64,000 nucleotides of DNA from an uncultured Lachnospiraceae bacterium (GTDB taxonomy: Bacteria > Bacillota > Clostridia > Lachnospirales > Lachnospiraceae): positions 4,716 through 68,715 of the forward strand of contig CAQWRG010000005.1 of NCBI GenBank assembly GCA_948909305.1, in the 5' to 3' direction. Positions 8,221 through 38,589 of this stretch are shown piece after piece. The notes beneath the pieces were generated by a model. It was not told the origin of the DNA, did no database searches, and saw only the letters and a program-made list of their open reading frames with translations. The translations under genes were made by a program, and so were the position numbers. Positions within the stretch are counted from its first letter, which is position 1. Each line of letters starts with the position of its first letter.

Positions 8221-9654
8221 TTATTGACGGATATCTACATAGCCTGTTTCAAGCGCAGAATCTGTAAATTCGCAGCCGCCAGAGGGGTTTAAGCTGATAA
8301 ATAATGTTTCAAGCTCATCTTCCATGACAATCCAAGCCATATGGACAACTGCCGTTTCGCCGGGGTTTATGCGCGCAATATAATTATTTCCCCGTTCTCC
8401 TCCATGTACGTCATAATAAATCATTTCCCACATATAGGACAATCCATGATTGACAATTCTGTCCCAGTCTCCCTTTTCCGTGGAGTCTTCTTCTGTTAAA
8501 ATCTGCATTTGCCCGTCATTTTCATGAATGCGGGGCATATCCCCAAAAAATAGGACGTCTGTGAGCGGCTCTTCACCGGTATTCGTATATTCCACTGTGG
8601 CATAAACCAGTTTTTGTCTGGCTTGACGGGTCTTTACTTCTTCGCTCAGGGAATCGGCGTCTCCATCTTTTATATATTGTATCGTAGCCGGACGCAGGCT
8701 GCCATTTTCGTCTGTTTCATTTCGGAGGGTTTCATCTGTCTGGGCGGCGTCTAACAGGCTGATCGTATCGGATATTTCTACATTAGATATTTTTGCTAAG
8801 AGGGTGGAGCCGTCTATTGGAAAACTTTCGCCGATTGCGTGAATGTTTTTCATATCTTCTTTAGAGATAGAAGTAATGGTTTTAGCTTCTTCCCCTTCGG
8901 CTTGCTCTTTTTGGTTATTCAGGCAGTCGCTCCAGTTTTCAGCAATTACAAACGCATCTTTCTCCGAATCTTTGGCCGGGATTAAATTTATATTTTCCGC
9001 GATTTTCATGGCTTCTTCTTTGCTGACGTCTGAAGCGGCATATAACTCCATTACATAATGAACGTCTGTATATGCGACATAGATTCTCTGGTTAAAAGTA
9101 ATCTCATCCGGGTATAAGTTGGGGTAGGTTAGGTAGATCCCTTTGCGTCCATTCGCAGTAAATTCTTCACTGGACAGCACATCGTCATGTTCCGCTTCAA
9201 ATGCGTCATCTCCGGTATCCATACGGTAAAATCTCATGCTTATGCCGCCCTTATTCAGGGAATCTTCAAAACTGTATTTCCCCCTTTCCGTTTCCATCAT
9301 GCCATCTGGAAGATAGCCGATTTCCAATTTTACATTCGGGATAGAAAGGGCTTTCCCGTTGCTTTTTGTATCGTCTGTGGCATTTTCTGAATTACGCTCA
9401 TCGCCTGTCACTGAGACACTGACGCCATGCGTCCCTGTCTGTTTTTGCTGTAGTTGGTAGATGCTTACTCCGGCAAATACCGTAGTTCCGCAAAACAGGA
9501 TTGCCGCTAAAGAGGCGGCAATGGTTTTGCCCATGCGTCTGCCTTTATAGGAAGTCTGTTTCGTTTGCAGTTGTTTTTTCACTTCTTTTTCCACCATAAT
9601 TTTCATCTCCTCCGGCATTTTTGGAAAATCATATTTTAAATTTTCAAATTCCAT
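8221..9654 (-). CDS. Putative anti-sigma factor / membrane protein with a large extracytoplasmic domain
   Basis: Lies immediately downstream of an ECF sigma gene (38-nt gap). It has a cytoplasmic N-terminus, a single TM (IAASLAAILFCGTTVFAGV) and a ~390-aa extracytoplasmic region. GGAGG RBS. Confidence 0.5.
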   Translation of the reverse strand: MEFENLKYDFPKMPEEMKIMVEKEVKKQLQTKQTSYKGRRMGKTIAASLAAILFCGTTVFAGVSIYQLQQKQTGTHGVSVSVTGDERNSENATDDTKSNGKALSIPNVKLEIGYLPDGMMETERGKYSFEDSLNKGGISMRFYRMDTGDDAFEAEHDDVLSSEEFTANGRKGIYLTYPNLYPDEITFNQRIYVAYTDVHYVMELYAASDVSKEEAMKIAENINLIPAKDSEKDAFVIAENWSDCLNNQKEQAEGEEAKTITSISKEDMKNIHAIGESFPIDGSTLLAKISNVEISDTISLLDAAQTDETLRNETDENGSLRPATIQYIKDGDADSLSEEVKTRQARQKLVYATVEYTNTGEEPLTDVLFFGDMPRIHENDGQMQILTEEDSTEKGDWDRIVNHGLSYMWEMIYYDVHGGERGNNYIARINPGETAVVHMAWIVMEDELETLFISLNPSGGCEFTDSALETGYVDIRQ

Positions 9655-17477: not shown

Positions 17478-17494
17478 TTGAGAAACAAAAGAAA

Positions 17495-17705
17495 GAACAT
17501 TCCGGTGTCAGGACAATGTTGTCATTGGTACTGGTGAAAAGGGAAACAGGTGGAAGTCCTGTACGAACTCGTCACCGTGATTAGGGAGTGAAGGCTGATA
17601 AATCACTGGGAAACTGGGAAGATAGCCTAAGCGTGGATCTTTGAGTCGGGAGACCTGCCGGAATGTGTACAGAAACGATAGTTTCAGGCCACGAGTGATT
17701 GGTTG
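17495..17705 (+). ncRNA. Cobalamin (B12) riboswitch
   Basis: Conserved core GGGAAACAGGTGGAAGTCC (GGGAAnnnGGTGnAAnTCC), CACTGGGAAACTGGGAAGATAGCC, and the B12 box GAGTCGGGAGACCTGCCGG (AGYCMGGAGACCKGCC). Confidence 0.8.
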
Positions 17706-23600: not shown

Positions 23601-24056
23601 ATGGCAAAGGAAATTAAATCGTTTAAAGTACATCCTGATTATGAAGAAGCGGAAATAAATTTTCGAAGAAAAGTGGGGTGGGAATTTATAAGCACACAAG
23701 AAATTTATAACAAAGACACCCATATGGAAGGAGGTATTTTCACTGATACTGTAACGAGTGTAACTGAGACAACGCATTTTGTAAAACTTACATTCCAGAG
23801 GGAGACGGAAAATGTAAACCCAGAGTTAATATCTTTGGAAAGGCAGATAGATAATATGCGTCCTCCAGAGGAACCACATACTTGGGGAACCATGGCTTTG
23901 ATTGTAGGGTTTATGCTCTATGTGCTTCCGGGAATATTTATGATGTCATCTAATAAAAAGAAGAAGCAGGAATATGAGCGCGTTTATTCTGAATATCAAA
24001 ATGAGTTCAGGCGGCTGCTTGCCCGTGTAGATGAACTTCAAATGGTGAAATCTTAA
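23601..24056 (+). CDS. Hypothetical membrane protein, first gene downstream of the inverton
   Basis: RBS AAGGAGAGG. One TM segment (WGTMALIVGFMLYVLPGIFMM). No known domain. Confidence 0.5.
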   Translation: MAKEIKSFKVHPDYEEAEINFRRKVGWEFISTQEIYNKDTHMEGGIFTDTVTSVTETTHFVKLTFQRETENVNPELISLERQIDNMRPPEEPHTWGTMALIVGFMLYVLPGIFMMSSNKKKKQEYERVYSEYQNEFRRLLARVDELQMVKS

Positions 24057-24969: not shown

Positions 24970-26718
24970 ATGGAAAATAAAGCATTTGGCATTGACCTTG
25001 GAACGACCTATTCTTGTATTAGTTATGTAGATGATATTTCAGGAGAGCCGGTTGTAGTAGATAACAGTGAAGGGACTAATGTAACGCCGTCCATTGTGTG
25101 TTTTGAAGATGAGGACACTATTGTTGTCGGCAACGTTGCAAAAGAAACGGCAGTGGTATCGCCGGAAGCCACCTGTGAATTTGTGAAGCGCAGAATGGGG
25201 GTGGATAAGGTAGCGATTACATATAATGGAACAGATTATTCCCCAGAGCAGATTTCTTCTTTGATTTTAAAAAAACTGGTGAAAGATGCGGAAGAAGCCC
25301 TAGATACAAAAATCAAGGATGTTGTAATCACCTGTCCCGCTTATTTTGGGATTGCAGAGAAAACAGCGACGGAAAATGCCGGGAAAATGGCAGGTTTAAA
25401 TGTGCTTGAAATTATCAATGAGCCGACGGCGGCCGCGCTTTGTTATGGAAGCCTCCGCGACGTAGAAGACAAAACGATACTAGTCTATGACTTGGGCGGC
25501 GGCACGTTTGATGTAACGATTATCCGCGTTACTCCGGAAGAAATTGTCGCAATCGCAACGGACGGCGACCATCAGTTGGGCGGAAAAGACTGGGACACGG
25601 CAGTGATGAACTGTGTGGAGGAAGTATTTCGTGACCAAAAATCGTTTGACGATGAATTTGATTTAGAAGCCCAGCAGGATTTGCGTCTGCGGGCGGAAAA
25701 AGCAAAACAGCAGCTTACAGGGAGGCCGAAAACAAAAGTAATCGTACAGGCTTCCGGCGCAAAGGCAAATATAGAATTTACAAGAGATGAGTTTGATGAA
25801 ATCACAAGCGCGCTCCTTAGCCAGACATTAGATAAAACAAAAGCTGCGATTGAAGCGGCTGAAAAAAAAGGCGTGACAAAAATAGATGAAATTATTTTAG
25901 TGGGCGGTTCCTGTAAAATGCCTCAGGTACGCGCGGCAGTGGAAGGCGCTTATCCTGATATTCCGGTTAAGATGTTCGAGCCGAATACGGCAGTTGCAAA
26001 AGGCGCTGCGCTTCATGCGGAGGCATTGTCTAAAGGACACGTCGAGTTACAAAAATGGCGGGATGAACTAAAAGAAGCGGTGGAAAACCTGAATAAAGAC
26101 AGGGCGCAGGAAGATAAAATTGATATTGACACACTGACGGAGGATACGATTTCCAAGGAGGACATGGAAGCGATCAAGAAAGAAGTGGAAAAGAACGGCG
26201 GCGATGCGCAGAAGGTGAAATTTGCCATTGGCGGGAAAGCCAGAGAAGGCGGCAAACAAGGCCCCGTGTTAAGAAATATCACATCGAAAAGTTTTGGCGT
26301 CCAGATCGTAAGAGATGAAATGGTAGACGGTAAAATGGAAATGGTGTATAAGATTGCGAATTTAATCCAAAAACAGGATGCTGTGCCTGTAACAGTGACA
26401 CAGGAATTTGGAACGGCATATGCCAATATGGAAAATGCGGAAATCGTTGTGTTTGAAACAGAGGTGACGGAAGAAGTCTATGACGTAGGATCGAATAGGG
26501 CTTTGGGCGCAGCAGTTTTAAATCTTCCGCCCAATTTGCCGGAAGGGGCGCCAATTCAGATTACATTCAGTTTGTCGACCGACGGCCTGTTAAGTATGAA
26601 AGGCGTGGATATGACTTCTAATCAGGAAGTGAAAACGATCTTAAAGACGGGTAGTATTTTGACAGAGGAAGACGTGGCGGCGCAGACGCAGGCGTTAAAG
26701 GGAATCCGCCTGAATTAA
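24970..26718 (+). CDS. Non-canonical Hsp70-family ATPase (DnaK-like nucleotide-binding domain, divergent C-terminal region)
   Basis: Hsp70 signatures IDLGTTYSCI, ITCPAYFGIAEKTATENAGKMAGLNVLEIINEPTAAALCYG and VYDLGGGTFDVTII. The C-terminal ~200 aa is unlike the canonical substrate-binding domain and lacks an EEVD tail. Confidence 0.85.
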   Translation: MENKAFGIDLGTTYSCISYVDDISGEPVVVDNSEGTNVTPSIVCFEDEDTIVVGNVAKETAVVSPEATCEFVKRRMGVDKVAITYNGTDYSPEQISSLILKKLVKDAEEALDTKIKDVVITCPAYFGIAEKTATENAGKMAGLNVLEIINEPTAAALCYGSLRDVEDKTILVYDLGGGTFDVTIIRVTPEEIVAIATDGDHQLGGKDWDTAVMNCVEEVFRDQKSFDDEFDLEAQQDLRLRAEKAKQQLTGRPKTKVIVQASGAKANIEFTRDEFDEITSALLSQTLDKTKAAIEAAEKKGVTKIDEIILVGGSCKMPQVRAAVEGAYPDIPVKMFEPNTAVAKGAALHAEALSKGHVELQKWRDELKEAVENLNKDRAQEDKIDIDTLTEDTISKEDMEAIKKEVEKNGGDAQKVKFAIGGKAREGGKQGPVLRNITSKSFGVQIVRDEMVDGKMEMVYKIANLIQKQDAVPVTVTQEFGTAYANMENAEIVVFETEVTEEVYDVGSNRALGAAVLNLPPNLPEGAPIQITFSLSTDGLLSMKGVDMTSNQEVKTILKTGSILTEEDVAAQTQALKGIRLN

Positions 26719-26743: not shown

Positions 26744-28840
26744 ATGAGAGTAGGAATAGATCTTGGAACAACATACTGCGCAATCGCTTATATTGACCCT
26801 AAAACGGGGAAGGCGAAAGTGATTCAGAACAGCGAAGGAAAATCCATCACGCCTTCCGTACTCTATTTTGATCCAAATGGGTCAGTTTTGCATGGAGAAG
26901 AAGCGAAAGCCTATGTGGAAGAAGGGTCTGACCGCACAGCGAATTATTTTAAATATTATATGGGTGACGAAACGTATGCGATCTGCCAGAATGGCAGAGA
27001 TTATACAGCGGTTGATCTTTCGGCTGAACTTTTAAAGGGCATTGTAAAAGAGGCGGAACAGGAAACGGGAGAACATATAGGGGAAGCGGTGATAACAGTT
27101 CCGGCGTATTTTAACCACCTTCAGCGTCAGGCGACGATGCGCGCGGGGCAGAACGCAGGCCTTACTGTTTTAAATATCATTAGTGAGCCGACAGCGGCCG
27201 TGTTCGCTTATGGGATACACGGTTCAGGGATAAACCAGACGGTTTTAGTCTATGACTTGGGCGGCGGCACATTTGACGTGACAATCGCCCGTATTACAGA
27301 CGATAGGATCGATGTGTTAGGTACGGACGGGGATCATAGGCTTGGCGGGAAAAACTGGGACGACGCTCTTTCAAATTACCTCGCAGATTGTTTTTATGAT
27401 GAATTTGGCATAGACGTTGGCAAAGATACAGAAAGAAATATTATGCTTCAGGCAATTTCCGAAAATACAAAAAAACAGCTTACGGAAAAGAAAAGCGCTA
27501 AAGCAGTGATTTACTGTAAGGGATGTAGAGGCGCGTATGAAATTACAGACGAGATTTTTGCAGAGATTACGTCCTATAATTTAAACCGGACAAAAGACAT
27601 TATACAAAAACTCTTTGATGAGCTTCAAATAGGCTGGGAGCAGATTGACGGCGTACTGCTTGTGGGCGGCTCTACACGCATGAAGCAGGTGAAAACATAT
27701 CTAACGGATATGTGTGGAAAACCTCCAATGAACGGCGTTAATGTAGATGAAGCTGTCGCGCTTGGAGCCGCAATCCGCGCTAATATTGACCGCAATGGCT
27801 TGGCGGCGCCGGTTGAATCAGGCAGTTTGTTTTCGATTGGCGGTTCTGTCTCAAAACCGCAGTTTTCCATTGCTGGAGCGAAGAAAATAAGCGATGCCAC
27901 GGCGCACAGCATGGGAATGATTGCTGTCAGCCAAGACGGGGAACGGTTTGTCAACAGCATAATGATAAAAAAGAATTCCAAGATTCCGTCGGAAGTTACA
28001 AAGTCATATGAGCTTGGCGTTTCTAAGAAACAGGAAAACCGTTTGGAGGTATACATGCTTCAGGGAGAGGAGGAAACGCTTGTATGGCCGCTAAATTGTA
28101 CAGTTCTTGGAAAGTATGTTTTTACAGGCATACAGGCAGGCGGGCAGAGAAAAGAAACGATCGATGTAACTTTTTATTATGATGAAAATAATATAGTCAA
28201 TGTCACGGCAAGGCAAAAAAGGACGGGGAGCCTTTTGGATTTGAAGATTGAACAGGCAGAAGATGACATGGACTGGGTTGTGGGAAACCCAAAAAACAGG
28301 GAAGGAACTTCTATGCCGCCCGAGCTGGCAGTTCTTTTAGCGGTCGATTTATCTGGGAGCATGGAAGGCGAAGGGATTACGGAAGCAAGAAAGGCGGCAG
28401 TCAGCTTTGTCAGGCAATTTGATATGGAGTATACAAAAATTGGGATTATCAATTTTGCAAACCAGTCGATTTTATATCAGCCATTGACTGATGACAGAAA
28501 CAGGCTGATTGTAAAAATCCAAGATTGGGAGATTAATGGAGACAATATTGGATATGGGACAAGCGCGGAACCCTTCACGCTTGCGTATGAAGTGCTAAAT
28601 TCCTATGAAACGGATATGAAATACGTCATTGTTTTAACGGACGGGTTTTGGAAATTTCAGGATCTTGCGATAGCGGCTGCGAAAAAATGTCATAAAAATA
28701 ATATGGAAGTGATTGCGCTTGGATTTGCGGATGCAAATACAGAATTTTTGGATGCAATCGCTTCCAGAAAAGATTTTTCAGCGTTTACAGATCTTTCTGA
28801 ATTAGAGACAACGCTGACCGGCATTGCGAAGATGATGTAA
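26744..28840 (+). CDS. Non-canonical Hsp70-family ATPase fused to a C-terminal von Willebrand factor A (vWA) domain
   Basis: Hsp70 motifs IDLGTTYCAI, ITVPAYFNHLQRQATMRAGQNAGLTVLNIISEPTAAVFAYG and VYDLGGGTFDVTIA. The C-terminal vWA has the MIDAS LAVDLSGSM...VIVLTDGFW. Confidence 0.85.
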   Translation: MRVGIDLGTTYCAIAYIDPKTGKAKVIQNSEGKSITPSVLYFDPNGSVLHGEEAKAYVEEGSDRTANYFKYYMGDETYAICQNGRDYTAVDLSAELLKGIVKEAEQETGEHIGEAVITVPAYFNHLQRQATMRAGQNAGLTVLNIISEPTAAVFAYGIHGSGINQTVLVYDLGGGTFDVTIARITDDRIDVLGTDGDHRLGGKNWDDALSNYLADCFYDEFGIDVGKDTERNIMLQAISENTKKQLTEKKSAKAVIYCKGCRGAYEITDEIFAEITSYNLNRTKDIIQKLFDELQIGWEQIDGVLLVGGSTRMKQVKTYLTDMCGKPPMNGVNVDEAVALGAAIRANIDRNGLAAPVESGSLFSIGGSVSKPQFSIAGAKKISDATAHSMGMIAVSQDGERFVNSIMIKKNSKIPSEVTKSYELGVSKKQENRLEVYMLQGEEETLVWPLNCTVLGKYVFTGIQAGGQRKETIDVTFYYDENNIVNVTARQKRTGSLLDLKIEQAEDDMDWVVGNPKNREGTSMPPELAVLLAVDLSGSMEGEGITEARKAAVSFVRQFDMEYTKIGIINFANQSILYQPLTDDRNRLIVKIQDWEINGDNIGYGTSAEPFTLAYEVLNSYETDMKYVIVLTDGFWKFQDLAIAAAKKCHKNNMEVIALGFADANTEFLDAIASRKDFSAFTDLSELETTLTGIAKMM

Positions 28841-28858: not shown

Positions 28859-31800
28859 ATGGGAAGAGGAGCGGACAACTTTTATCTGATTTTAGGGCTG
28901 GATTTCTTAAAGCCGGAATCTGACCAGAAAGTCATACTAAAACGCCTTAATGAAAAACAGAAGTTTTGGGATAAAAATAGGGAGCACAGGGAAAAGGGAC
29001 CTAAATATCGGCAATATAGCCAGTGGGTGCCAATTATCGCAAGCACGATGGCAAAGGAATCCTCACGCAATGCAGAAGCGAACGACGCGAGGGCATATGT
29101 GCAGCAGCGTCTGAGTGAAAATAAAAGGCATTTAGGCGGAAAGCAGAAGATTGATTCCTCTACGGCAGAGGCGATGATGGAGCTGTGTGGGCTTAGCGTA
29201 GAATTAAAAGATTTGTTTGAAAAGCTGGCGAATGTGCAAATATCGGATGAGAACGAAGAAATAAAAAAAGAAGATCCAAATCCGAAGCCAACTGGATTTG
29301 CAAGATTTTCCAAGTTAAAAGGTTCAGAGAAATATTTGTCCGTATTGAGAAAAACAGATTTATATCATTTTTTGGCGGACAGTGAAGAACAGGCAGATCA
29401 AATCGGAATCAGAAACCTGTCCGGAAAAGATTTGCTGGAAAAACATTTAGCGCCCATTAAAAAGGCATTTGAACATGACCGTGGAAATGAGGGTACGGCA
29501 GTCAAAGAGTTAGCATCTCTTTGCGAAGATATATTTGATCCTGCCCATCCAGAAAGGAAGGAAGAATACGACCTCTATTTAATCTGGAAGCAAAAAGATG
29601 AGATCATAACGAAAATGGTGGCTTTTTCCGGTAAAAACAGAAAACTGGAGCAGGGACAGCAGGAACCTTTTGTTGATGCCCTGACCCAGATTTTGAAAGA
29701 CAGGGAATCGGCGGTAAAAGTTTTTCAGCAAATTTGCATATTTAAAGACATTTCGTTTTCTTCTGTACAGGAGAACAAAAACAGGGTGGCGTGCGGGCAC
29801 TGTTTTGCGATGGTGGACATTTCCCATGGAGAGCGTAAATGCTCAGTCTGCGGCAGTGACTTATACATCAAATGCCCGAACCCGGATTGTAAGAAAGAAG
29901 TCCTTGCATCTTCGAGAGCCTGCGGCTACTGCGGGACGGATATGAATTTAGCGCAAAAGGCGGAACAGCTTTGCAATATGGCAAAGGCGGCGATTGCCAG
30001 TATGGATATTGCAAAAGCAAGGGGCGCCCTTGTGAGGGCGGAACAGCTTTTGAAGGGATATGCTAAAACGGTAAAGTTAAGCGCTGAACTTGAGAAATTG
30101 GAACGGTCGTTTTCGAAGGAACTCGAAAATTTGGATGCATTGATTGCAAAAAAAGAATTTTATCACGCGAATGATGTATTAAAAACAATTTTGCAAAAAG
30201 CGCCGACAGCGCAGATTGCTCAGGCTGTCTTGGTGGAAAATGCAGTCAAAGAAGCGGAAAATCTTTATCAATCAGCGCTTACAAAGAAAACGGAAGGTGA
30301 ATTGATTCAGATATGTTCCCAGATTGTCAACTTGTGTGTGGATTATCCGGGAGTAGAGGCTCTGATTTTAAAATTTCCTCCGAAACCTGTTTCTAATATT
30401 AAAATTTTGGCGGATACAGCTACATGCGTTAATACATTGACATGGGATAAAAGCCCGTCAGAAGGAGAGATTTGCTATAAAATTATCCGAAAAGAAAATA
30501 CTGCGGCCGCATCGGTTGGAGATAAAAGCGCGGAAGAAATTGGAGAGGCGGGGATTCCCCGTTTTGTAGATGAACATGTAAGAGCCGGAGTGGATTATTA
30601 TTACAGTATTTATACAATCCGCGCAGGAGCCGCATCGGAGCCTGCGTTTGCCCATGCAGTAAATTTGGCGGAAGCGAATTTAATCCGGACGGAAGAAGGA
30701 GATGGTTATGTCAGGGCGGAATGGAAACCGTTAGGAGGACATGCCGCCGCGGAAGTCTGGCGGATAGAAGGCGAGACGCCGCCGTGTCGCGGTGAAGGCG
30801 AAAGAATTACATCGGGCAGTAATTATTTTATGGACGACGCCGTAGAAAATGACCGCGCATACAGTTATCTTATTACGGTGAAATACCAGACTGGTGGAAA
30901 AAGCGTTTTTACGAATGGGGTTTCCATTACGCTGTTCCCATCTTCTGTCCCAGAGCCGGTAGAAGATTTGACGGTTTCCAATGTGGAGGATGATATCTTT
31001 GAAGCGGTTTTTTCGTATGAAGGTGAGGAAAAAGTGTCGCTTTACTGCGCAGAGCAGAGAACCTCATTTCAGTATGGAGATATAGTCGGCATGGATAAGG
31101 TGACGGCAGCTTTAAAGCCGCTTGAGATTCTTTCATCGTCGAAAAACAGCGTAAGGTTCCGTTTAAAAGACAATAAAAAATATGTCATTGTGCCGGTAAG
31201 CATTAAACATAATACTGCGGTCATCGGGGAATGCGCCGCTGTAGCCAAAATGGAAAAAATCCAGATAAAAGGTATGGAATGGGTTAATTCCACGCTGCAT
31301 ATCCGCATGGAATGGCCAAAAGAAGCCGTTTTAGCGATTGCTCTTTATGGAACAGACAGTTATGCCAAAAATCTGGAAGACCGCGCAGGCAAAACGTCTC
31401 GGAGCGTCAGTAAAAAACAATTTGAAGCGGACGGCGCGCTTTTACTGAAAAACATAGAGAAAAAAGATTATTTTATTACGTTATTCTCCGCATGCAGAGT
31501 CAATGGGGAGCTTGTCTATTCAGATGGCGCACGGCTGACTTTTACAAATAAGGAAAAGACGGATATCCACTATACGATCAGGCGGAAAGGCTTTCTCAAC
31601 AAACAGGTAGAAATTGAATTTAAAAGCACAGTAAAAACGTTTGCCCTGCCAGAGATTGACCTGATTTCAAAACAACATGCCGTTCCGGTTTATGCAAATT
31701 CAGGAAACCTTGCGCGACACATTGCGGCTCAGGAAGTCTGTGGAAGCCACATTGAGCTGTTTGAAGCAAAATCTTTTCCCAAAGACAGTTATATCAAAGC

Positions 31801-31876
31801 GTTTTTTACAGATGAAGATATAAATGACAAATTAAGCCTGCGTCCGGCGTATGGCACGGATTTTAAAGTAAATTAA
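28859..31876 (+). CDS. Large multidomain protein with an N-terminal degenerate J-like domain (HPD motif lost), two zinc ribbons, a helical region and FN3/Ig-like beta domains
   Basis: The N-terminus NFYLILGLDF..ESDQKVILKRLNEKQKFWDKN aligns to J-domain helices II/III (DYYEILGV...KAYRKLAMKYHPDKN) with HPD replaced. Zinc ribbons CGHC...CSVCG and CPNPDC...CGYCG. The C-terminal half predicts all-beta. Confidence 0.55.
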   Translation: MGRGADNFYLILGLDFLKPESDQKVILKRLNEKQKFWDKNREHREKGPKYRQYSQWVPIIASTMAKESSRNAEANDARAYVQQRLSENKRHLGGKQKIDSSTAEAMMELCGLSVELKDLFEKLANVQISDENEEIKKEDPNPKPTGFARFSKLKGSEKYLSVLRKTDLYHFLADSEEQADQIGIRNLSGKDLLEKHLAPIKKAFEHDRGNEGTAVKELASLCEDIFDPAHPERKEEYDLYLIWKQKDEIITKMVAFSGKNRKLEQGQQEPFVDALTQILKDRESAVKVFQQICIFKDISFSSVQENKNRVACGHCFAMVDISHGERKCSVCGSDLYIKCPNPDCKKEVLASSRACGYCGTDMNLAQKAEQLCNMAKAAIASMDIAKARGALVRAEQLLKGYAKTVKLSAELEKLERSFSKELENLDALIAKKEFYHANDVLKTILQKAPTAQIAQAVLVENAVKEAENLYQSALTKKTEGELIQICSQIVNLCVDYPGVEALILKFPPKPVSNIKILADTATCVNTLTWDKSPSEGEICYKIIRKENTAAASVGDKSAEEIGEAGIPRFVDEHVRAGVDYYYSIYTIRAGAASEPAFAHAVNLAEANLIRTEEGDGYVRAEWKPLGGHAAAEVWRIEGETPPCRGEGERITSGSNYFMDDAVENDRAYSYLITVKYQTGGKSVFTNGVSITLFPSSVPEPVEDLTVSNVEDDIFEAVFSYEGEEKVSLYCAEQRTSFQYGDIVGMDKVTAALKPLEILSSSKNSVRFRLKDNKKYVIVPVSIKHNTAVIGECAAVAKMEKIQIKGMEWVNSTLHIRMEWPKEAVLAIALYGTDSYAKNLEDRAGKTSRSVSKKQFEADGALLLKNIEKKDYFITLFSACRVNGELVYSDGARLTFTNKEKTDIHYTIRRKGFLNKQVEIEFKSTVKTFALPEIDLISKQHAVPVYANSGNLARHIAAQEVCGSHIELFEAKSFPKDSYIKAFFTDEDINDKLSLRPAYGTDFKVN

Positions 31877-31905: not shown

Positions 31906-33144
31906 ATGGCAAAAAAATACACATGTCCCTATTGTTTTAAAGAGCATGAATTTGAAGATGTGGAATTTCGGTGTGTCAATGGGTTTTGCAGTGAGAAAAC
32001 GCAAGATGAAAAATACGCCCAGTATTTGGGGTTAAAGAAGGAATCAATGCCGCTGACAAACGCGACATTTTGCGCGAAAACGGTTTTGCCGAAATTGTTC
32101 CGCGGCCGTTATATGCCGATGTGGGAGAATTGCCCGTTTTGTGAAACAAAGACGTCAATCCGGGTTTGCCCGGACTGCCATAATGAGCTTCCGGAAGGAA
32201 TCCAAGATAATGAAGATATGATAATCGCGATTGTAGGGAGCCGTGATACGGGAAAAACGCATTTTATTTCTGTATTAATCAATGAACTGCAAAAGAGGAT
32301 ATGCCCTACGGTTTTCAATGGAATTTTTAATCCTATGAATGACGCGGTGCATAATCATTATATGGATCATTTTTACAACAGGGTTTATATACAAAAACAG
32401 TTACAGGATTTAACGGCGACAGCAAACCAGAGAGGGGAAATATCCGTAAGGAAGCCGTTAATTTATGAAATGATTATTCCGTTGGACGACAAAGGGAAGC
32501 GTGTCCGCAAGTTTACATTTGTATTTTACGATACCGCGGGTGAAGATTTAAAAAGTGAAGCGGTGATGAAGACGGTAAACCGTTATATCTGTAAAGCGGC
32601 GGGAATTATCTTTTTGCTTGACCCGCTTCAGATTATGGAGCTGCGGAACAATATGGATGAAGATGAAATCAAAACGTCTTCTTCTATTCTGGAAAATGAG
32701 ATTGTATCGCAAGAAATGGTTTTACAGAGAATTGCAAATGTAATCCGTGAGGATAAAGGAATGAAAAAATCGCAGAAAATCAATGTGCCTACAGCAATCG
32801 CGTTTTCGAAATTTGATGTGTTAAAACGTTTCTTCCCAAAAGGCAGCATAGTATTGGAGCCTTCGAGTTATCTGCGGGAAGGGCAGCTTGATAAAAGCGA
32901 ATGGTTTACTGTAAGCAATGAGATAGAAGCGATGCTCAATGAGTGGGGAGCGGGCGGATTTGCCACACAGGTAAAAATGACGTTTGACAGGTATACATAT
33001 AGCGCCGTATCGGCTTTGGGGCAGCGTCCGATATTGTCGAAATCGGGAGGGGCGAAAGAAATTGCAAGCCAGCCGATGCCGCATCGGGTAGAAGATCCGT
33101 TTTTATGGCTCTTAAAAGAAAACCGGGTTATCAAAGAAAAATAG
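31906..33144 (+). CDS. Double zinc-ribbon protein fused to a Ras-like small GTPase / P-loop domain
   Basis: Zinc ribbons CPYC...C..C and CPFC...CPDC. G1 IAIVGSRDTGKTHF, G3 FVFYDTAGED (DTAGQE-like), G4-like FSKFD. Confidence 0.55.
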   Translation: MAKKYTCPYCFKEHEFEDVEFRCVNGFCSEKTQDEKYAQYLGLKKESMPLTNATFCAKTVLPKLFRGRYMPMWENCPFCETKTSIRVCPDCHNELPEGIQDNEDMIIAIVGSRDTGKTHFISVLINELQKRICPTVFNGIFNPMNDAVHNHYMDHFYNRVYIQKQLQDLTATANQRGEISVRKPLIYEMIIPLDDKGKRVRKFTFVFYDTAGEDLKSEAVMKTVNRYICKAAGIIFLLDPLQIMELRNNMDEDEIKTSSSILENEIVSQEMVLQRIANVIREDKGMKKSQKINVPTAIAFSKFDVLKRFFPKGSIVLEPSSYLREGQLDKSEWFTVSNEIEAMLNEWGAGGFATQVKMTFDRYTYSAVSALGQRPILSKSGGAKEIASQPMPHRVEDPFLWLLKENRVIKEK

Positions 33145-33156
33145 GGAGGAAAAGAA

Positions 33157-35436
33157 ATGGGGATAAATCAGGCGCTTTTTACTTCTTCTGCCCGTGGAAT
33201 CAGTAAGGGCGGGGGATTGGGCTTACATAGTTATAACAGGACATGCAGTGACATGGAACTGAGGGAATTTGAGCAGGGGTTCTGCCACTATTCCTATCAG
33301 GGCGACAGCAGCGAAATACCGAATCTGCCCAAAAAAATGCTGTATAAGAAAATTGATGGAGATCGGTATCTATTGGCAAGCGTGACTTATTTGGGAAAGG
33401 ATTATCTCAAGGAGCAAGGGCGTATGGGAAACCTTCTTAGCCATATGTATTCTTTTGAGAGAAAAGACCTTACGAAATATCCGATGGAATTTTGCGCAAG
33501 CCCTGATTTCCGTTATGAAATGGAATCTGATGAAGTGGACGGCAGCAGGCGCGTAGAGTATCTTTCTGAAGTAAGCGGCGTTAGGACGGGGACGAAAGTC
33601 ATGCGTGAAACTGTACAGGCATTTTTAGAAGCAGAGCCTTGGAGAATTGATTTTTTCAGAAATCTTTTAGCGGCGGTTTTTCATAGGGATGCAGTCCATA
33701 AAGTAATCCTTTCCGACAGCCATGAACATATTTTGATGTGGCTTGCGGCGGTTGAATTTGCTCTGCCATTGCAGTGCGCAATAGAACTTTCTTTCTCCAG
33801 TTATGAAGAAAATCCAATGATTTCGGAGTTTGATATCCGCGGCATGGCATCTGGGCTTAGCGTGGGAAGTTGTGAAGAATACGCCGCAAGCGGGCAGTAT
33901 TATGTATTTGACGGGAATCATCAGGCTTATCCCAAATTTGATATAACGGAGGGTTATTTTCAGTATGGAATTTTATTTGGCATAGACAGTATTCAGGGGT
34001 TTTGTGATTTTATGAAATCATATGGATATTATAGCGTAGATATGGATATTTGCGCCGGATACAATCTCTACCAAATGGTACAGGGAGGAATGGATCTTCT
34101 GGGAGAAAAGGAGTTTCAGGATGCAGTTTCATTTGAAAGCAAGTATGGAGATCGCGCCACATACAGGCAGATTTTAGAAAACCAGTTTGAAAAAATAGAA
34201 GGAAATTACACACCAGATCTTTCAGTGTTAAAAAGCATTTATGTCTGGCTGATTGGGTATTTTCAGAAACCGCTTACGATAAAAGACTTGGAGTTTGCGG
34301 TCGCATACGCTGTTCGGCTGGAGCGGTATGGAAAGGACAATACTAAACTTGTAAATGCAAGAAAGCAGATGTGGGAATTTATCTATGAAACGATGGTGCA
34401 GAGCAAACAGAAAACGGCGCTTGCTTTTTTGCTTGAGAAGTTAAAAGAGGCGGGATTGTATGAACATATTGGAGAGTTTAGCCGTTATCTGATCCAGTTT
34501 GCAAACGAAGATACGGCTGCAAAAAGGCTTGGCCGTCTGTTCACTATGCTGTGGGAGGCTGTGCCGCAGACAGAATACCGGTATTTCGATGCGGTTGTTG
34601 AGACAGAAGCGGACCGGCTTGCCGCATATGATGGAAAAGAGCAGTACAGGGAAGCGCTGCTTGCTTTTTTGAAAGTTCAGGAACTGGGATATGGGCAGGT
34701 GCATGGGAAGGGAATGGAAAAGCTGATAGCCTTTCTATCGTGCGGAACAAATTTCGAAGATTTAAAACCCAGAAAACAGGGGCTGATTCATAGAAAAAAA
34801 GAAAACCGTGACGAGCTGGAACAGCTTCAGGCAAAAGCCGCATTTGAAGCGTTTAATTATGCGCAGAAGCATAACAAAAATATATCTATTGCAAACATCA
34901 GGCTTTTGCATTTAGGCAAGTGCATCCAAAATGCGTTTGAATTGGAAAAACCGCTGGAAAAGGTTAAAACGCTCCGGATTTATTCGGATTATCCGGTGGA
35001 TATGGAACGGATTTCGCATGATGAATTTGAGTTTTATTTGGATATTCTGTGTGAGACGATTTTTACAATGCAGTTAGATAAGTCGGATTATATGCAGCTT
35101 TTGACGTATTGGATTTTGGAAAAACGGCAGAAAAGCATATTAATGCAAAAATTTTTGTCCGGTGAAATGAACAGCGTAAAAAAGGATAGTGAAGCAGGCG
35201 GGCTTATAAGTCTTCTGTCAGCGCTTAAGAATCTGAATGATGAGGAATATACAGAAGCGTTTCAAAAGAATCTCTTTTTGCTTAAGGAATCACAGCGCGT
35301 TAGGGCGGCGGATTTAATGAAAAAAGAGTATGGAGCGGACAATGAAGGCTATCGGTTTTGGCGGCAGTTAATACGCGGAGAAAAACCGACTGAAAAAAGT
35401 CTGACAAAGAAATTTCCGAAATTTGGGAAAAGGTAA
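33157..35436 (+). CDS. Hypothetical 759-aa protein, predicted cytoplasmic and alpha-rich
   Basis: A 12-nt gap with an RBS couples it to the GTPase gene. No recognisable motif. Confidence 0.5.
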   Translation: MGINQALFTSSARGISKGGGLGLHSYNRTCSDMELREFEQGFCHYSYQGDSSEIPNLPKKMLYKKIDGDRYLLASVTYLGKDYLKEQGRMGNLLSHMYSFERKDLTKYPMEFCASPDFRYEMESDEVDGSRRVEYLSEVSGVRTGTKVMRETVQAFLEAEPWRIDFFRNLLAAVFHRDAVHKVILSDSHEHILMWLAAVEFALPLQCAIELSFSSYEENPMISEFDIRGMASGLSVGSCEEYAASGQYYVFDGNHQAYPKFDITEGYFQYGILFGIDSIQGFCDFMKSYGYYSVDMDICAGYNLYQMVQGGMDLLGEKEFQDAVSFESKYGDRATYRQILENQFEKIEGNYTPDLSVLKSIYVWLIGYFQKPLTIKDLEFAVAYAVRLERYGKDNTKLVNARKQMWEFIYETMVQSKQKTALAFLLEKLKEAGLYEHIGEFSRYLIQFANEDTAAKRLGRLFTMLWEAVPQTEYRYFDAVVETEADRLAAYDGKEQYREALLAFLKVQELGYGQVHGKGMEKLIAFLSCGTNFEDLKPRKQGLIHRKKENRDELEQLQAKAAFEAFNYAQKHNKNISIANIRLLHLGKCIQNAFELEKPLEKVKTLRIYSDYPVDMERISHDEFEFYLDILCETIFTMQLDKSDYMQLLTYWILEKRQKSILMQKFLSGEMNSVKKDSEAGGLISLLSALKNLNDEEYTEAFQKNLFLLKESQRVRAADLMKKEYGADNEGYRFWRQLIRGEKPTEKSLTKKFPKFGKR

Positions 35437-35451
35437 GGCGGAGATATAAAT

Positions 35452-36495
35452 ATGGCGTTTAAAAGAGCGAATCGGGAGATTGTTCAAAACATAAAAAAGG
35501 GATATTACTACCGGAAAATGCCGCCTGCGCTTCAAAAAGGCTATGAAATTGCGGCAGAGGGGATTCTTTCTTTTCAGAAAAAAGTAAAGATAGCGGATTG
35601 CTCTGGCAAGGAAGAAATGGAGCGGATTATCCGCGCTGTCCTTATGGAACATCCTCAGTTTTTTTATTTGAATGCAAAAGATATTGGCGTTGTAAATGCG
35701 GGGGAGTCATTTTCGTTTTCCTTTCATTATTTGTATGACAAAAAAGAAGCCATTCAGCTATTGCAGCAGATAGACAATCGGGCAGACTATATTTTGTCAG
35801 AAATCATTACGGACGGCATGACGGATTATGATAAATGCGTGGCAATTCATGATTATGTTACAAATCATATCCGTTACAATTTTTCTGCGGCGGCAGTTTC
35901 CTATATTTACGATGCATTTACGATAGAAGGCCCTATCCTAAAAAATCAGGCGGTTTGCGAAGGGATTGCAAAGACCATCGCTTATTTACTGGACAAGCTT
36001 TCTGTCAATCATTTAATTGTGGCAGGTTTTAGTGACATTGATGGGGTTCATGCGCCGCACGCATGGAATATGGTGGAGTTAGAAGGAAGTTATTATCATA
36101 TCGATGCGACATGGGATTTACAGGAAATCAATCATTTTACGAACTGCTCTCATATGTATGTAAATTTAGACGATGACTCCATGCTTGAAAACCATGATTG
36201 GGAATTGGGGGACTATCCGTCTTGTGATAAACGGGCAGAGAACTATTATGTAAAAGAAGGGCGTTTTTTCCGGTCAATGCGAAGCTTTGAATTGTATGCG
36301 CAGAAATTTTTACAGGAGGGGCAGTCTTTTATGGACGCCAGGTTTGAAGATGTATTGGATTTGCCTGATGAGAATGGGAATTATTTGGCGGAAATAATTC
36401 AGAAAAGCGCTGTGTATGCCGGGAAAAGATGTCAGGTATCTTTTGTCTTCCATCCATGCAATTATGTGTTTCAGGCGAATGTGATGTATGGATAA
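35452..36495 (+). CDS. Transglutaminase-like superfamily cysteine protease/transglutaminase
   Basis: Cys-His-Asp core AVCEGIAKTIAYLL ... HAWNMVEL ... YHIDATWD. Confidence 0.75.
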   Translation: MAFKRANREIVQNIKKGYYYRKMPPALQKGYEIAAEGILSFQKKVKIADCSGKEEMERIIRAVLMEHPQFFYLNAKDIGVVNAGESFSFSFHYLYDKKEAIQLLQQIDNRADYILSEIITDGMTDYDKCVAIHDYVTNHIRYNFSAAAVSYIYDAFTIEGPILKNQAVCEGIAKTIAYLLDKLSVNHLIVAGFSDIDGVHAPHAWNMVELEGSYYHIDATWDLQEINHFTNCSHMYVNLDDDSMLENHDWELGDYPSCDKRAENYYVKEGRFFRSMRSFELYAQKFLQEGQSFMDARFEDVLDLPDENGNYLAEIIQKSAVYAGKRCQVSFVFHPCNYVFQANVMYG

Positions 36496-36519
36496 TTAGG
36501 AAATAGGAAGAAGGACGAG

Positions 36520-37296
36520 ATGAAATTTTCAAATTATAGAAAACAAGATGTATATAAGATGCTGTTAAAGGCGGCAGTGGCATTCGTGATTCTGATTGTG
36601 GCTTTGTTTACAGTTTACAGGATTGCAAAGCCAAAAGTGGATATGTGGCTTTTAGAGAGGAAAGAGGCTAAAGAAAAAAGAGAAGCGGAAGAAAAAAAGG
36701 AAGCGGAAGAAAAAGCGGAAAGGGAATCCGAAGAACAAAGAATGCAGGAACTTGCGGAAGAATCGGATCGGATAAGCGACGGGCAGGAACAGAAAGATTC
36801 TGAATATGAGGAAGAATCAGAAACGGAAGAACCGGAAACGGAAGAATCGTCTATTCATCGGTATGAGTATGTAGTGGAAGATTGTACATGGCAGGAAGCG
36901 TTTGAAACATGCAAGTCAAAAGGGGGCTGTCTTGTCAATATCGACGACGAAGCGGAGTTTGCCTATATTACAGCGGAAATTGAAAAAAACGGTATGAAAG
37001 AGATCTTGTTTTATTTGGGAGCATCACAGGATTCGGAACAAAATTACCGTTGGCGGTCGGCAGAAGGCGCGTTTAGCGGGGGTATCCTAAATGGAGTGGG
37101 ACATTCTTGGCACAGCAGATATTGGATGCAGGGAGAACCCAGTTATTATGACGGAGAAATAGAAGAAAATGTACTGGCTATGCAGTTTTTTGAAAAAGAA
37201 GCGAGATGGGTATTCAATGATGTGCCGGGGGATATTGTGGGAAATTTTTCATATCTCAGTGGAAAAATAGGCTATATCTGTGAATACAGTGAGTAG
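36520..37296 (+). CDS. Type-II membrane protein with an extracellular C-type-lectin-like domain (CTLD), paralog 1
   Basis: Conserved N-terminus MKFSNYRKQD..KMLL, one TM, a Glu/Lys-rich stalk, then the CTLD (CTWQEAFETCKSKGGCLVNID...WRSAEG...WMQGEPS...WVFNDVPGD...YICEY). Confidence 0.7.
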   Translation: MKFSNYRKQDVYKMLLKAAVAFVILIVALFTVYRIAKPKVDMWLLERKEAKEKREAEEKKEAEEKAERESEEQRMQELAEESDRISDGQEQKDSEYEEESETEEPETEESSIHRYEYVVEDCTWQEAFETCKSKGGCLVNIDDEAEFAYITAEIEKNGMKEILFYLGASQDSEQNYRWRSAEGAFSGGILNGVGHSWHSRYWMQGEPSYYDGEIEENVLAMQFFEKEARWVFNDVPGDIVGNFSYLSGKIGYICEYSE

Positions 37297-37326
37297 GCAG
37301 GGAAATTTATCGGGAGAAGATAAGGT

Positions 37327-38589
37327 ATGAAATTAAAAAAGGCGCTGGCAGTTAGTTTGTGTATGTTGTTTTGCGTTTTGCTGGGATATGTGTTTGGAGA
37401 ATGGAAAGCGGGAAAAGAAAGTGTGGCGCGTCCTAAAAAAAAGTCCATAGAACAAACGGCATCGGAGGAAAAAGAGAAAGAGCCGCTGTCTGTAACGGAA
37501 AGTGTGGAATCGCTTCCGAAAGAAGACGCAAAGGAAACATGGATTCGTGAAAAGCTGTCTGAGATGACAGAGGAACAGAAGGCGGCTCAGTTATTTGTGA
37601 TTTTGCCGGAAGCGTTGACCGGGGTAAGACAGGTAATCCGGGCTGGAGAAACTTCAAGGCAAAGTCTGTTATCGTATCCGGTCGGAGGCTTGATTTATAT
37701 GTCCGGAAGCCTGAAAAGTCCGGAGCAGACAAAAGAAATGCTTGGAAATATGATGGAGTTTAGCCAAAATGATACGGGCATACCGCTGTTTTTATGCGTT
37801 GATGAGGAAGGCGGTAAGGTGGCGCGGGTGGCGTCGAATCCGGCATTTGGCGTACAGAATGTTGGGAATATGAGGGAAATTGGAGATTCTGGCGACATTA
37901 GAAGGGCTTATGCGGCAGGAAAGGAAATGGGGGCGTATTTAAAAGACCTTGGCTTTAATGTGGATTTTGCGCCTGTAGCGGATGTTTTGACAAATCCACA
38001 GAACGAGCTATTGCAAAACAGAAGTTTTGGGTCAGATGCTGAATTGGTGCGGGGCATGGTAGAACAGGCGGCAAAGGGAATTGAGGAATCTGGCGTATTT
38101 TCCTGCGTCAAGCATTTTCCGGGTCATGGGAATACAAATGAAGATTCGCATAATGGCTATGCGACGACGCAAAAGACTTTAGAGGAAATGCGTCAGACTG
38201 AATTTATCCCGTTTCAAGATCAGATTGAAAAAGGGATTTCGTTTGTTATGGCAGGGCATATTTCCGCGCCGAATGTGATGGGAGATCAGACGCCTTCATC
38301 TTTATCCGGCATTATGCTGACAGATATTTTACGCAATGAGCTAAAGTTTGACGGAATTATTATTACTGATGCATTAAATATGGGAGCGGTTACAAGCCAT
38401 TATTCTTCTGGGGAAGCTGCGGTTATGGCTTTTTTGGCCGGGGCGGATATGCTTTTGATGCCTCAGGATTTTCATAGCGCATACAATGCAATTTTAGAAG
38501 AAATTCATCAGGGCAGGATTACAAAAGAACGTTTGGATGCATCGGTTGGGAGGATATTAAGTGTGAAGTATCAGTTACTACAAAAATAA
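37327..38589 (+). CDS. Glycoside hydrolase family 3 beta-N-acetylhexosaminidase (NagZ-like), membrane-anchored
   Basis: N-terminal TM anchor. GH3 signature KHFPGHGNT..DSH and GIIITDALNMGA. Confidence 0.8.
   Translation: MKLKKALAVSLCMLFCVLLGYVFGEWKAGKESVARPKKKSIEQTASEEKEKEPLSVTESVESLPKEDAKETWIREKLSEMTEEQKAAQLFVILPEALTGVRQVIRAGETSRQSLLSYPVGGLIYMSGSLKSPEQTKEMLGNMMEFSQNDTGIPLFLCVDEEGGKVARVASNPAFGVQNVGNMREIGDSGDIRRAYAAGKEMGAYLKDLGFNVDFAPVADVLTNPQNELLQNRSFGSDAELVRGMVEQAAKGIEESGVFSCVKHFPGHGNTNEDSHNGYATTQKTLEEMRQTEFIPFQDQIEKGISFVMAGHISAPNVMGDQTPSSLSGIMLTDILRNELKFDGIIITDALNMGAVTSHYSSGEAAVMAFLAGADMLLMPQDFHSAYNAILEEIHQGRITKERLDASVGRILSVKYQLLQK

Follow-up and report, generated by a model that had tools for sequence, protein, structure and literature searches.

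An open reading frame (ORF) in a 64,000-nucleotide (nt) stretch of DNA from an uncultured Lachnospiraceae bacterium (GenBank assembly GCA_948909305.1, contig CAQWRG010000005.1, positions 4,716 to 68,715; hereafter the window) probably encodes the fibronectin type III (FN3)-repeat component of a GAP1-N2-type GTPase-centric system, in which two tandem J-like domains would dock dedicated Hsp70s and the canonical J trigger has been lost on both sides. An initial annotation made from the sequence of the window had pointed to a single J-like stretch in the product of this ORF, at residues 7-40, and to the loss of its catalytic HPD tripeptide. The loss extends to the whole family, and the flagged stretch proved to be the weaker of two tandem domains, the clearer one lying at residues ~165-245. 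The ORF, its J-like domains and the residues that occupy the HPD positions are as follows.

28859 to 31876, plus strand: ORF of the FN3-repeat ('SaeA-like') component, 1005 amino acids (aa), with J-like domain 1, J-like domain 2, a double zinc ribbon, a helical region and an FN3 array
28871 to 29134, plus strand: J-like domain 1, residues ~5-92, with helices I (8-12), II (23-39), III (47-65) and a long IV (67-92), and a loop at 40-46
28970 to 28978, plus strand: D38-K39-N40, the HPD-equivalent of J-like domain 1, placed by HMMER and hhalign alignments; family consensus S-K/R-x
29351 to 29593, plus strand: J-like domain 2, residues ~165-245, with helices I (168-173), II (189-203), III (210-225) and IV (from 231), and a loop at 204-209
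29471 to 29479, plus strand: E205-H206-D207, the HPD-equivalent of J-like domain 2, placed by the hhalign pairing of 'AFEHDRGN' with 'KYHPDRNQ' and by column counts

Relatives of the 1005-aa protein were collected at several depths. An initial homolog search returned 26 close homologs, and a profile search against 1.84 billion cluster representatives (50% identity) gave 11,156 matches at E<=1e-3, with 1,136 at E<=1e-30. Column counts were taken over an alignment of 148 of the best relatives, which share 19-46% identity with the query. For genomic context, a related-locus search seeded with the alignment of close homologs yielded 10 loci, and six relatives at 20-28% identity were picked from the list of representatives (the distant loci L015-L020). 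Some relatives lack one or other of the J-like domains.

Residues ~165-245 are a J fold, and the clearer of the two. When a profile of this region was compared with the PDB, the top matches were J domains, namely DNAJA3 (E 0.001 and 0.0036), E. coli DnaJ (0.026) and Sis1 (0.03), and J proteins made up most of the 34 matches listed. Comparison with a J-domain alignment gave an hhalign probability of 79.9% and an E-value of 1.4e-5 over 73 columns, and the AlphaFold2 (AF2) model of the domain has a predicted local distance difference test score (pLDDT) of 95. Conserved positions include L168, Y169, F171, L172, L192, L218, F226, K/R234, Y237, D238 and L241.

The first domain is a probable J fold as well, and a strongly diverged one. 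The Pfam DnaJ model did not match the 1005-aa protein at E<=0.1, nor any of six homologs at E<=1; a shallow N-terminal profile built from 17 close homologs found nothing in the PDB or against the J-domain alignment, and a hidden Markov model made from 10 J domains scored the N-termini of the family at only ~3 bits. The J signal surfaced only with a deeper, more diverse profile. This profile, of 41 sequences over residues 1-135, matched the J-domain alignment with an hhalign probability of 46.8% (E 2e-4) over 62 columns that pair query 3-70 with J 9-70 and so cover the whole J domain, and its PDB matches to the J domains of DNAJB8 (E 0.079) and DNAJB2 (E 0.79) fall in the same register. In that register N7-F8-Y9 corresponds to D-Y-Y, W37 to the tryptophan of 'RWHPDKN', and D38-K39-N40 to HPD itself. 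The AF2 model that includes this domain (pLDDT 81.9) contains the four helices given above, followed by a beta-alpha-alpha-beta unit. When the model was searched with Foldseek against 350,542 PDB chains, the nine best matches were all J domains, with E-values of 0.2-1.7 and, for Tid1, a probability of 0.99 and a template modelling (TM) score of 0.60 normalised by target length. Thus the register proposed at the outset for residues 7-40 was close and the fold comparison agrees with it, while the sequence signal is marginal and unaccompanied by a Pfam match; the sequence evidence appears to lie at the edge of detection, with somewhat better support from the fold.

Such values leave some room for a less favoured explanation, namely that only residues ~165-245 form a J fold and that the N-terminal stretch is an unrelated small helical bundle with a chance resemblance to one. 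The missing Pfam match, the hhalign probability below 50%, the modest best PDB sequence match and the Foldseek E-values, all >=0.23, fit a chance resemblance, as does the comparison of the two domains with each other, since the profile of domain 1 has no significant match to that of domain 2 (Prob 5.5%); set against this, three separate lines of analysis agree on J domains, in a single register and across the whole domain, J domains alone occupy the nine best places among the Foldseek chains, and the conserved residues sit at structural positions of the J fold. We therefore regard a chance resemblance as unlikely, if by no means negligible.

The absence of HPD is a family trait and not an error. 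None of the 148 relatives carries HPD at either loop, and the tripeptide occurs anywhere in the first 320 residues of only one of them, at position 294, outside both loops. At the same time, the conserved residues of both domains fall on J-fold positions, namely D/N-Y-Y-x-x-L-G-L at the start, an aromatic ahead of the loop and K/R-x-x-Y-D at the end. Relative to the PF00226 J-domain family, the four-helix fold with its antiparallel II/III hairpin is present, and HPD and an above-threshold match to the model are absent. In domain 1 the family signature consists of N7 (141/148), L12, L14, K33, W37 (139/148), R70 (135/148) and A77 (133/148), and in domain 2 the loop equivalent to HPD is variable across the family. 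A motif of the form W-S-K-x-R-N-H-P-T-K-G, considered as a shifted HPD, was dropped: the profiles place HPD right after W37, and HPT is found in part of the family only. A sequencing error can be excluded because HPD is missing at the aligned positions across the 148 relatives, and a pseudogene is likewise ruled out by an intact ORF with an AGGAG ribosome-binding site 8 nt 5' of its ATG. Both outcomes that would have spoken against the initial annotation, a fold other than J and an HPD at the aligned position in homologs, failed to appear.

The second half of the trigger resides in the Hsp70 partners. As the initial annotation had observed, the gene follows directly on two Hsp70 paralogs, the second of them ending 18 nt upstream of the ORF.

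24970 to 26718, plus strand: Hsp70 paralog a, 582 aa (Pfam HSP70 E 2e-96), with a nucleotide-binding domain (NBD) at residues 6-353, an acidic helical insert, a beta substrate-binding subdomain (SBD-beta) at 464-570 and no lid
26744 to 28840, plus strand: Hsp70 paralog with a C-terminal vWA domain, 698 aa (Pfam HSP70 E 3e-99, vWA E 1e-15)

In canonical Hsp70s, the HPD aspartate captures R167 of DnaK and thereby frees it from D393 and D481, and changes at R167 raise basal activity and leave poor J stimulation (PMC7289447). To follow these residues we aligned 27 Hsp70s of the system (15 of paralog a and 12 of the vWA paralog with the region present) with E. coli DnaK, whose 'VKRIINEPT' motif and numbering behaved as expected. 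In the window, the R167 position is occupied by E147 in paralog a (nt 25408-25410) and by N144 in the vWA paralog (nt 27173-27175). Across the alignment, arginine is found there in none of the 15 sequences of paralog a (E in 8, Q in 3, S in 3, G in 1) and in one of 12 of the vWA paralog, which otherwise has S, N, C, G, H or K. Each paralog, in addition, has neutralised one of the two aspartates that partner R167. In paralog a, D393 has become N in 11/15 sequences, with D481 kept as D/E in 13/15; in the vWA paralog it is D481 that reads N (13/14), and D393 is D throughout (14/14). The R167/D393/D481 triad of a canonical J-responsive Hsp70 is therefore absent from both upstream paralogs. The ATPase residues K70, E171, D194, T199 and D201 are invariant in the Hsp70s of the system, and SBD-beta is kept in paralog a, where residues 464-570 align with DnaK 391-494 after the acidic helical insert. 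Because every ATPase residue is kept, both paralogs are probably active ATPases. The initial annotation had held that a J-like protein without HPD cannot stimulate Hsp70 ATPase and would act as a scaffold or regulator, which is reasonable by analogy with canonical systems. Judged from these alignments, the missing R167 in the partners speaks against J stimulation by the canonical route, but a remodelled coupling of a non-canonical kind becomes just as probable as plain inactivity.

Two further observations concern these Hsp70 genes. The acidic helical insert of paralog a, ~70-90 residues long at ~355-440 (window 25990-26290), stands between NBD and SBD-beta in place of the short hydrophobic linker region of DnaK and is conserved in Lachnospiraceae relatives. 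In a near-identical record of a metagenome-assembled genome (MAG; locus L005, with 54 single-nucleotide polymorphisms in 23 kb), a TAG at position 8618 takes the place of the window's CAG at 27476 and forms a premature stop in the Hsp70-vWA gene, for which strain-level inactivation and assembly error are both possible.

The genetic linkage between the J-like protein and Hsp70 is widespread. Of 16 distinct loci whose upstream sequence could be read, 15 have an Hsp70 gene directly before the gene for the J-like protein, nine of these 15 being distant. For example, among the six distant loci L015-L020 all have an Hsp70 directly upstream, five encode a Pfam GrpE and four an Hsp70-vWA protein. The gene order of the window is found again in L003 and L006-L010, six relatives from Lachnospiraceae/Eubacterium, and in L013, and fragments of it are seen in L004 and in a Thiotrichaceae locus (L011). 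The window itself is ~99.8% identical to a contig of the uncultured Lachnospiraceae MAG MGBC163558.

Behind the J-like domains, the protein continues with the modules listed here, together with a small subdomain that separates the two J-like domains.

29147 to 29245, plus strand: small beta-alpha-alpha-beta subdomain, residues 97-129, after J-like domain 1, from AF2 secondary structure
29792 to 29935, plus strand: double zinc ribbon, residues 312-359, with eight conserved cysteines, from Pfam DZR and invariant cysteine columns
29936 to 30358, plus strand: helical spacer, probably coiled-coil, residues 360-500, from a reading of sequence and alignment only
30371 to 31873, plus strand: array of FN3-like beta-sandwich domains, residues 505-1005, from profile comparison with the PDB and Pfam matches on homologs

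The zinc ribbons and FN3-like modules to which the J-like stretch had been said to be fused are both present. The eight cysteines of the double zinc ribbon (312, 315, 328, 331, 339, 344, 355 and 358) are invariant in homologs; the Pfam DZR match at 312-359 has an E-value of 1.2e-3 in the 1005-aa protein, which is under the curated cut-off, and homologs match more strongly (e.g. 1.7e-7). A profile of the last 500 aa matched PDB structures of tandem fibronectin FN3 domains at E 1.1e-7, and also titin and RPTP-F. Precomputed Pfam matches on homologs comprise fn3 and, weakly or faintly, Fn3_SaeA_2nd to 6th (PF25832-PF25836). The subdomain at 97-129 has a weak homeodomain-like profile match (E 0.05). 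A scan of the 1005-aa protein with Pfam, NCBIfam and PADLOC returned the zinc ribbon only, with no DnaJ and no known defence system.

The gene is part of a co-directional block, running from a gene for a 151-aa small protein to one for a glycoside hydrolase family 3 (GH3) enzyme, in which genes are spaced 12-30 nt apart. In addition to the ORF and the two Hsp70 genes the block contains the following.

23601 to 24056, plus strand: small protein, 151 aa, with one hydrophobic segment, first gene of the block, conserved in L005 and L006
24077 to 24955, plus strand: GrpE-family nucleotide-exchange factor, 292 aa, assigned by transitive homology
31906 to 33144, plus strand: P-loop GTPase, DO-GTPase-like, 412 aa, from weak Pfam DO-GTPase2/1 matches
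33157 to 35436, plus strand: GAP1 protein with GAP1-N2 and GAP1-M, 759 aa (PF20013 40.2 bits, PF20014 27.3 bits, cut-off 24)
35452 to 36495, plus strand: transglutaminase-like protein, 347 aa (Pfam Transglut_core E 1.9e-5), a conserved last member of the cluster
36520 to 37296, plus strand: membrane-anchored C-type-lectin-like protein, syntenic in several Lachnospiraceae relatives (L005-L010)
37327 to 38589, plus strand: GH3 (NagZ-like) hydrolase, syntenic in the same relatives (L005-L010)

The 292-aa protein has a faint NCBIfam GrpE match (E 0.023), and phmmer links it at E 1e-8 to 1e-28 to upstream ORFs of six distant loci, five of which carry Pfam GrpE PF01025. Similarly, the GTPase reaches 21.8 bits against DO-GTPase2, under the cut-off of 27, and its homologs in L001 and L019 carry PF19993. 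The transglutaminase gene is syntenic in L003, L006-L010 and L016, and together with the lectin-like and GH3 proteins (35452-38589) its product may act as an envelope-directed effector. A gene for an FtsK/DUF87-type ATPase of ~1050 aa stands between GAP1 and transglutaminase in L003 (16561-19728), L016 (12541-15678) and L020 (13969-17172); it is absent from the window, where the transglutaminase gene directly follows GAP1. Promoter and terminator predictions were no better than chance and did not delimit an operon. Elsewhere in the window we noted a cobalamin riboswitch at 17486-17676 on the plus strand (Rfam RF00174, 97 bits, E 6e-23), upstream of genes that begin at ~18551, and three consecutive large ORFs of 890, 797 and 1390 aa at 52203-61467, also on the plus strand.

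The combination of J-like domain, zinc ribbons and FN3 modules had been called unusual, which does not hold, given a family of over 11,000 representatives of clusters at 50% identity and a description dating from 2020 (PMC7159879). In that computational study, Kaur et al. described GAP1-N2 GTPase-centric systems with an Hsp70/GrpE theme, their second theme, with ~14% of neighbourhoods, found in Actinobacteria and Firmicutes and comprising Hsp70, GrpE and sometimes a second Hsp70 (PMC7159879). Because the same authors already report an FNIII-repeat protein N-terminally fused to DnaJ or TPR (PMC7159879), the combination is not undescribed. The window conforms to their theme in its GAP1-N2 protein, its FNIII repeats fused to J folds, its two Hsp70 genes and its GrpE (by the transitive homology described above), it has a neighbouring GTPase gene whose product may be of the DO type, and it likewise comes from the Firmicutes. 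Two differences stand out. Kaur et al. write of a 'DnaJ domain' and mention HPD nowhere, whereas we find two tandem J folds without HPD; and their second Hsp70 is described as 'sans peptide-binding domain', whereas the second Hsp70 here is fused to vWA and has a region recognisably similar to the beta subdomain. We found no experimental study of a GAP1-N2/Hsp70 system in the literature. Since the overall architecture is already published, our results amount to a refinement of a known system rather than a new one; apparently new in detail are the tandem J folds, the family-wide absence of HPD and the partners' matching lack of R167.

Likenesses and differences can also be drawn at the level of the domains. 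With canonical J domains (PF00226; DnaJ, Ydj1, Tid1, HscB) the J-like domains share the four helices with a II/III hairpin, the start motif, the aromatic residue before the loop, the end motif and the genetic linkage to Hsp70 and GrpE; they differ from them in lacking HPD, in falling under the Pfam threshold, in a much longer helix IV and in having partner Hsp70s devoid of R167. Pam16/Tim16 is an HPD-less J-like protein, and two more, NdhU of the chloroplast NDH and mitoribosomal mL77, are among the structural matches found here. These proteins are eukaryotic or organellar and have a single such domain, in contrast to the tandem pair on a bacterial zinc-ribbon/FN3 protein encoded beside Hsp70s without R167. 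The likeness to SaeA, the namesake of Fn3_SaeA_2nd to 6th, consists of weak or faint matches on homologs only. The saeA-C genes, probably Mycobacterium smegmatis genes required for ESX-1 secretion, serve here as a lead only.

How might such a system work? We suggest that the J-like domains are docking modules for the two dedicated Hsp70s, and that they would tether the zinc-ribbon/FN3 array to the paralogs encoded upstream, presumably through the surface where J domains normally bind, made up of NBD, linker and SBD-beta. With the canonical trigger absent on both partners, from J-like loops without HPD and Hsp70s without R167, the J-like domains would provide proximity and specificity and probably not the classical ATPase kick. 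The Hsp70s would be recycled by the GrpE of the operon and be insulated from the housekeeping DnaJ/DnaK, and control may have moved to the switch formed by the GTPase and GAP1, together with ligands that bind vWA and FN3. For the cluster as a whole, Kaur et al. 2020 have put forward a function in conflict or sensing, in which the FN3 array would be the sensor (PMC7159879).

Several points weigh against docking on dedicated Hsp70s as set out above. A Chloroflexi relative, P0026 (L001/L002), has both J-like domains and no Hsp70 within ~4 kb upstream or 10 kb downstream, and therefore J-like domains can persist unlinked to Hsp70. Because the single-Hsp70 loci L016 and L019 retain both J-like domains, there is no simple rule of one domain per paralog, and we rejected such a pairing. 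The housekeeping reference in the R167 comparison consists of E. coli DnaK and the literature only, and the sampled loci are not phylogenetically independent. In the Chloroflexi locus (L001 1-8094), the relative lies between two DO-GTPase2 genes and a gene for a 794-aa protein; neither Hsp70 nor GrpE is encoded in the part of the locus that was read, which makes this the sole exception to the Hsp70 linkage.

A possibility that we hold to be unlikely, though it deserves consideration, is one in which the J-like domains are full ATPase activators that use another trigger and form an orthogonal J/Hsp70 pair. Here K33/W37 together with S/K at positions 38-39 of domain 1, or the D/T/N-rich loop of domain 2, would contact the altered residue 167 (E, Q, S, N) and the remaining aspartate. 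A real ATPase cycle is indicated by the intact catalytic residues of the Hsp70s together with a GrpE encoded in the operon; N7, K33, W37 and R70 are kept in 86-95% of relatives, beyond what a mere scaffold might need; and position 167 is charge-reversed to Glu in 8/15 of paralog a, with R or K at position 39 of domain 1 in 86/148 relatives. There is also a precedent in E. coli, where R167H in DnaK suppresses DnaJ D35N (PMC7289447), showing that the contact between the HPD aspartate and R167 can be re-paired. However, because the loop of domain 2 varies, as does Hsp70 position 167 (E, Q, S, G, N, C, H), no conserved replacement contact is evident.

Finally, we consider it improbable that the J-like domains make no Hsp70 contact at all and serve as structural or oligomerisation modules, or as binders of the GTPase, GAP1 or another partner: the Chloroflexi relative, flanked by two GTPases, and the presence of the fixed complex subunits NdhU and mL77 among the best structural matches are in keeping with it, whereas the Hsp70 gene directly upstream in nearly all distinct loci, and the co-loss of R167 in exactly these Hsp70s, which suggests a shared history with an HPD-less partner, speak against it.

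Docking on dedicated Hsp70s thus remains our preferred account. A more far-reaching version, to which we give rather low credence, is that this is a natural Hsp70 machine from which the J trigger, the HPD aspartate acting on R167, has been removed in both partners, such that the J fold would serve as an address label and the cycle would be gated by the GTPase/GAP1 pair or by ligands of vWA and FN3. If true, it would constitute an orthogonal, J-trigger-independent bacterial Hsp70 system for sensing or defence. Few elements of the chaperone cycle are as strongly conserved as HPD and the Hsp70 arginine that receives it. In the large bacterial family described here both halves of this trigger are gone, whereas the J fold, the ATPase site of Hsp70 and GrpE persist. 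Such a family would offer a natural experiment on what the J fold can do beyond firing hydrolysis, on how a pair of Hsp70s may be insulated from DnaK/DnaJ, and on how a chaperone cycle may be wired to a GTPase switch.

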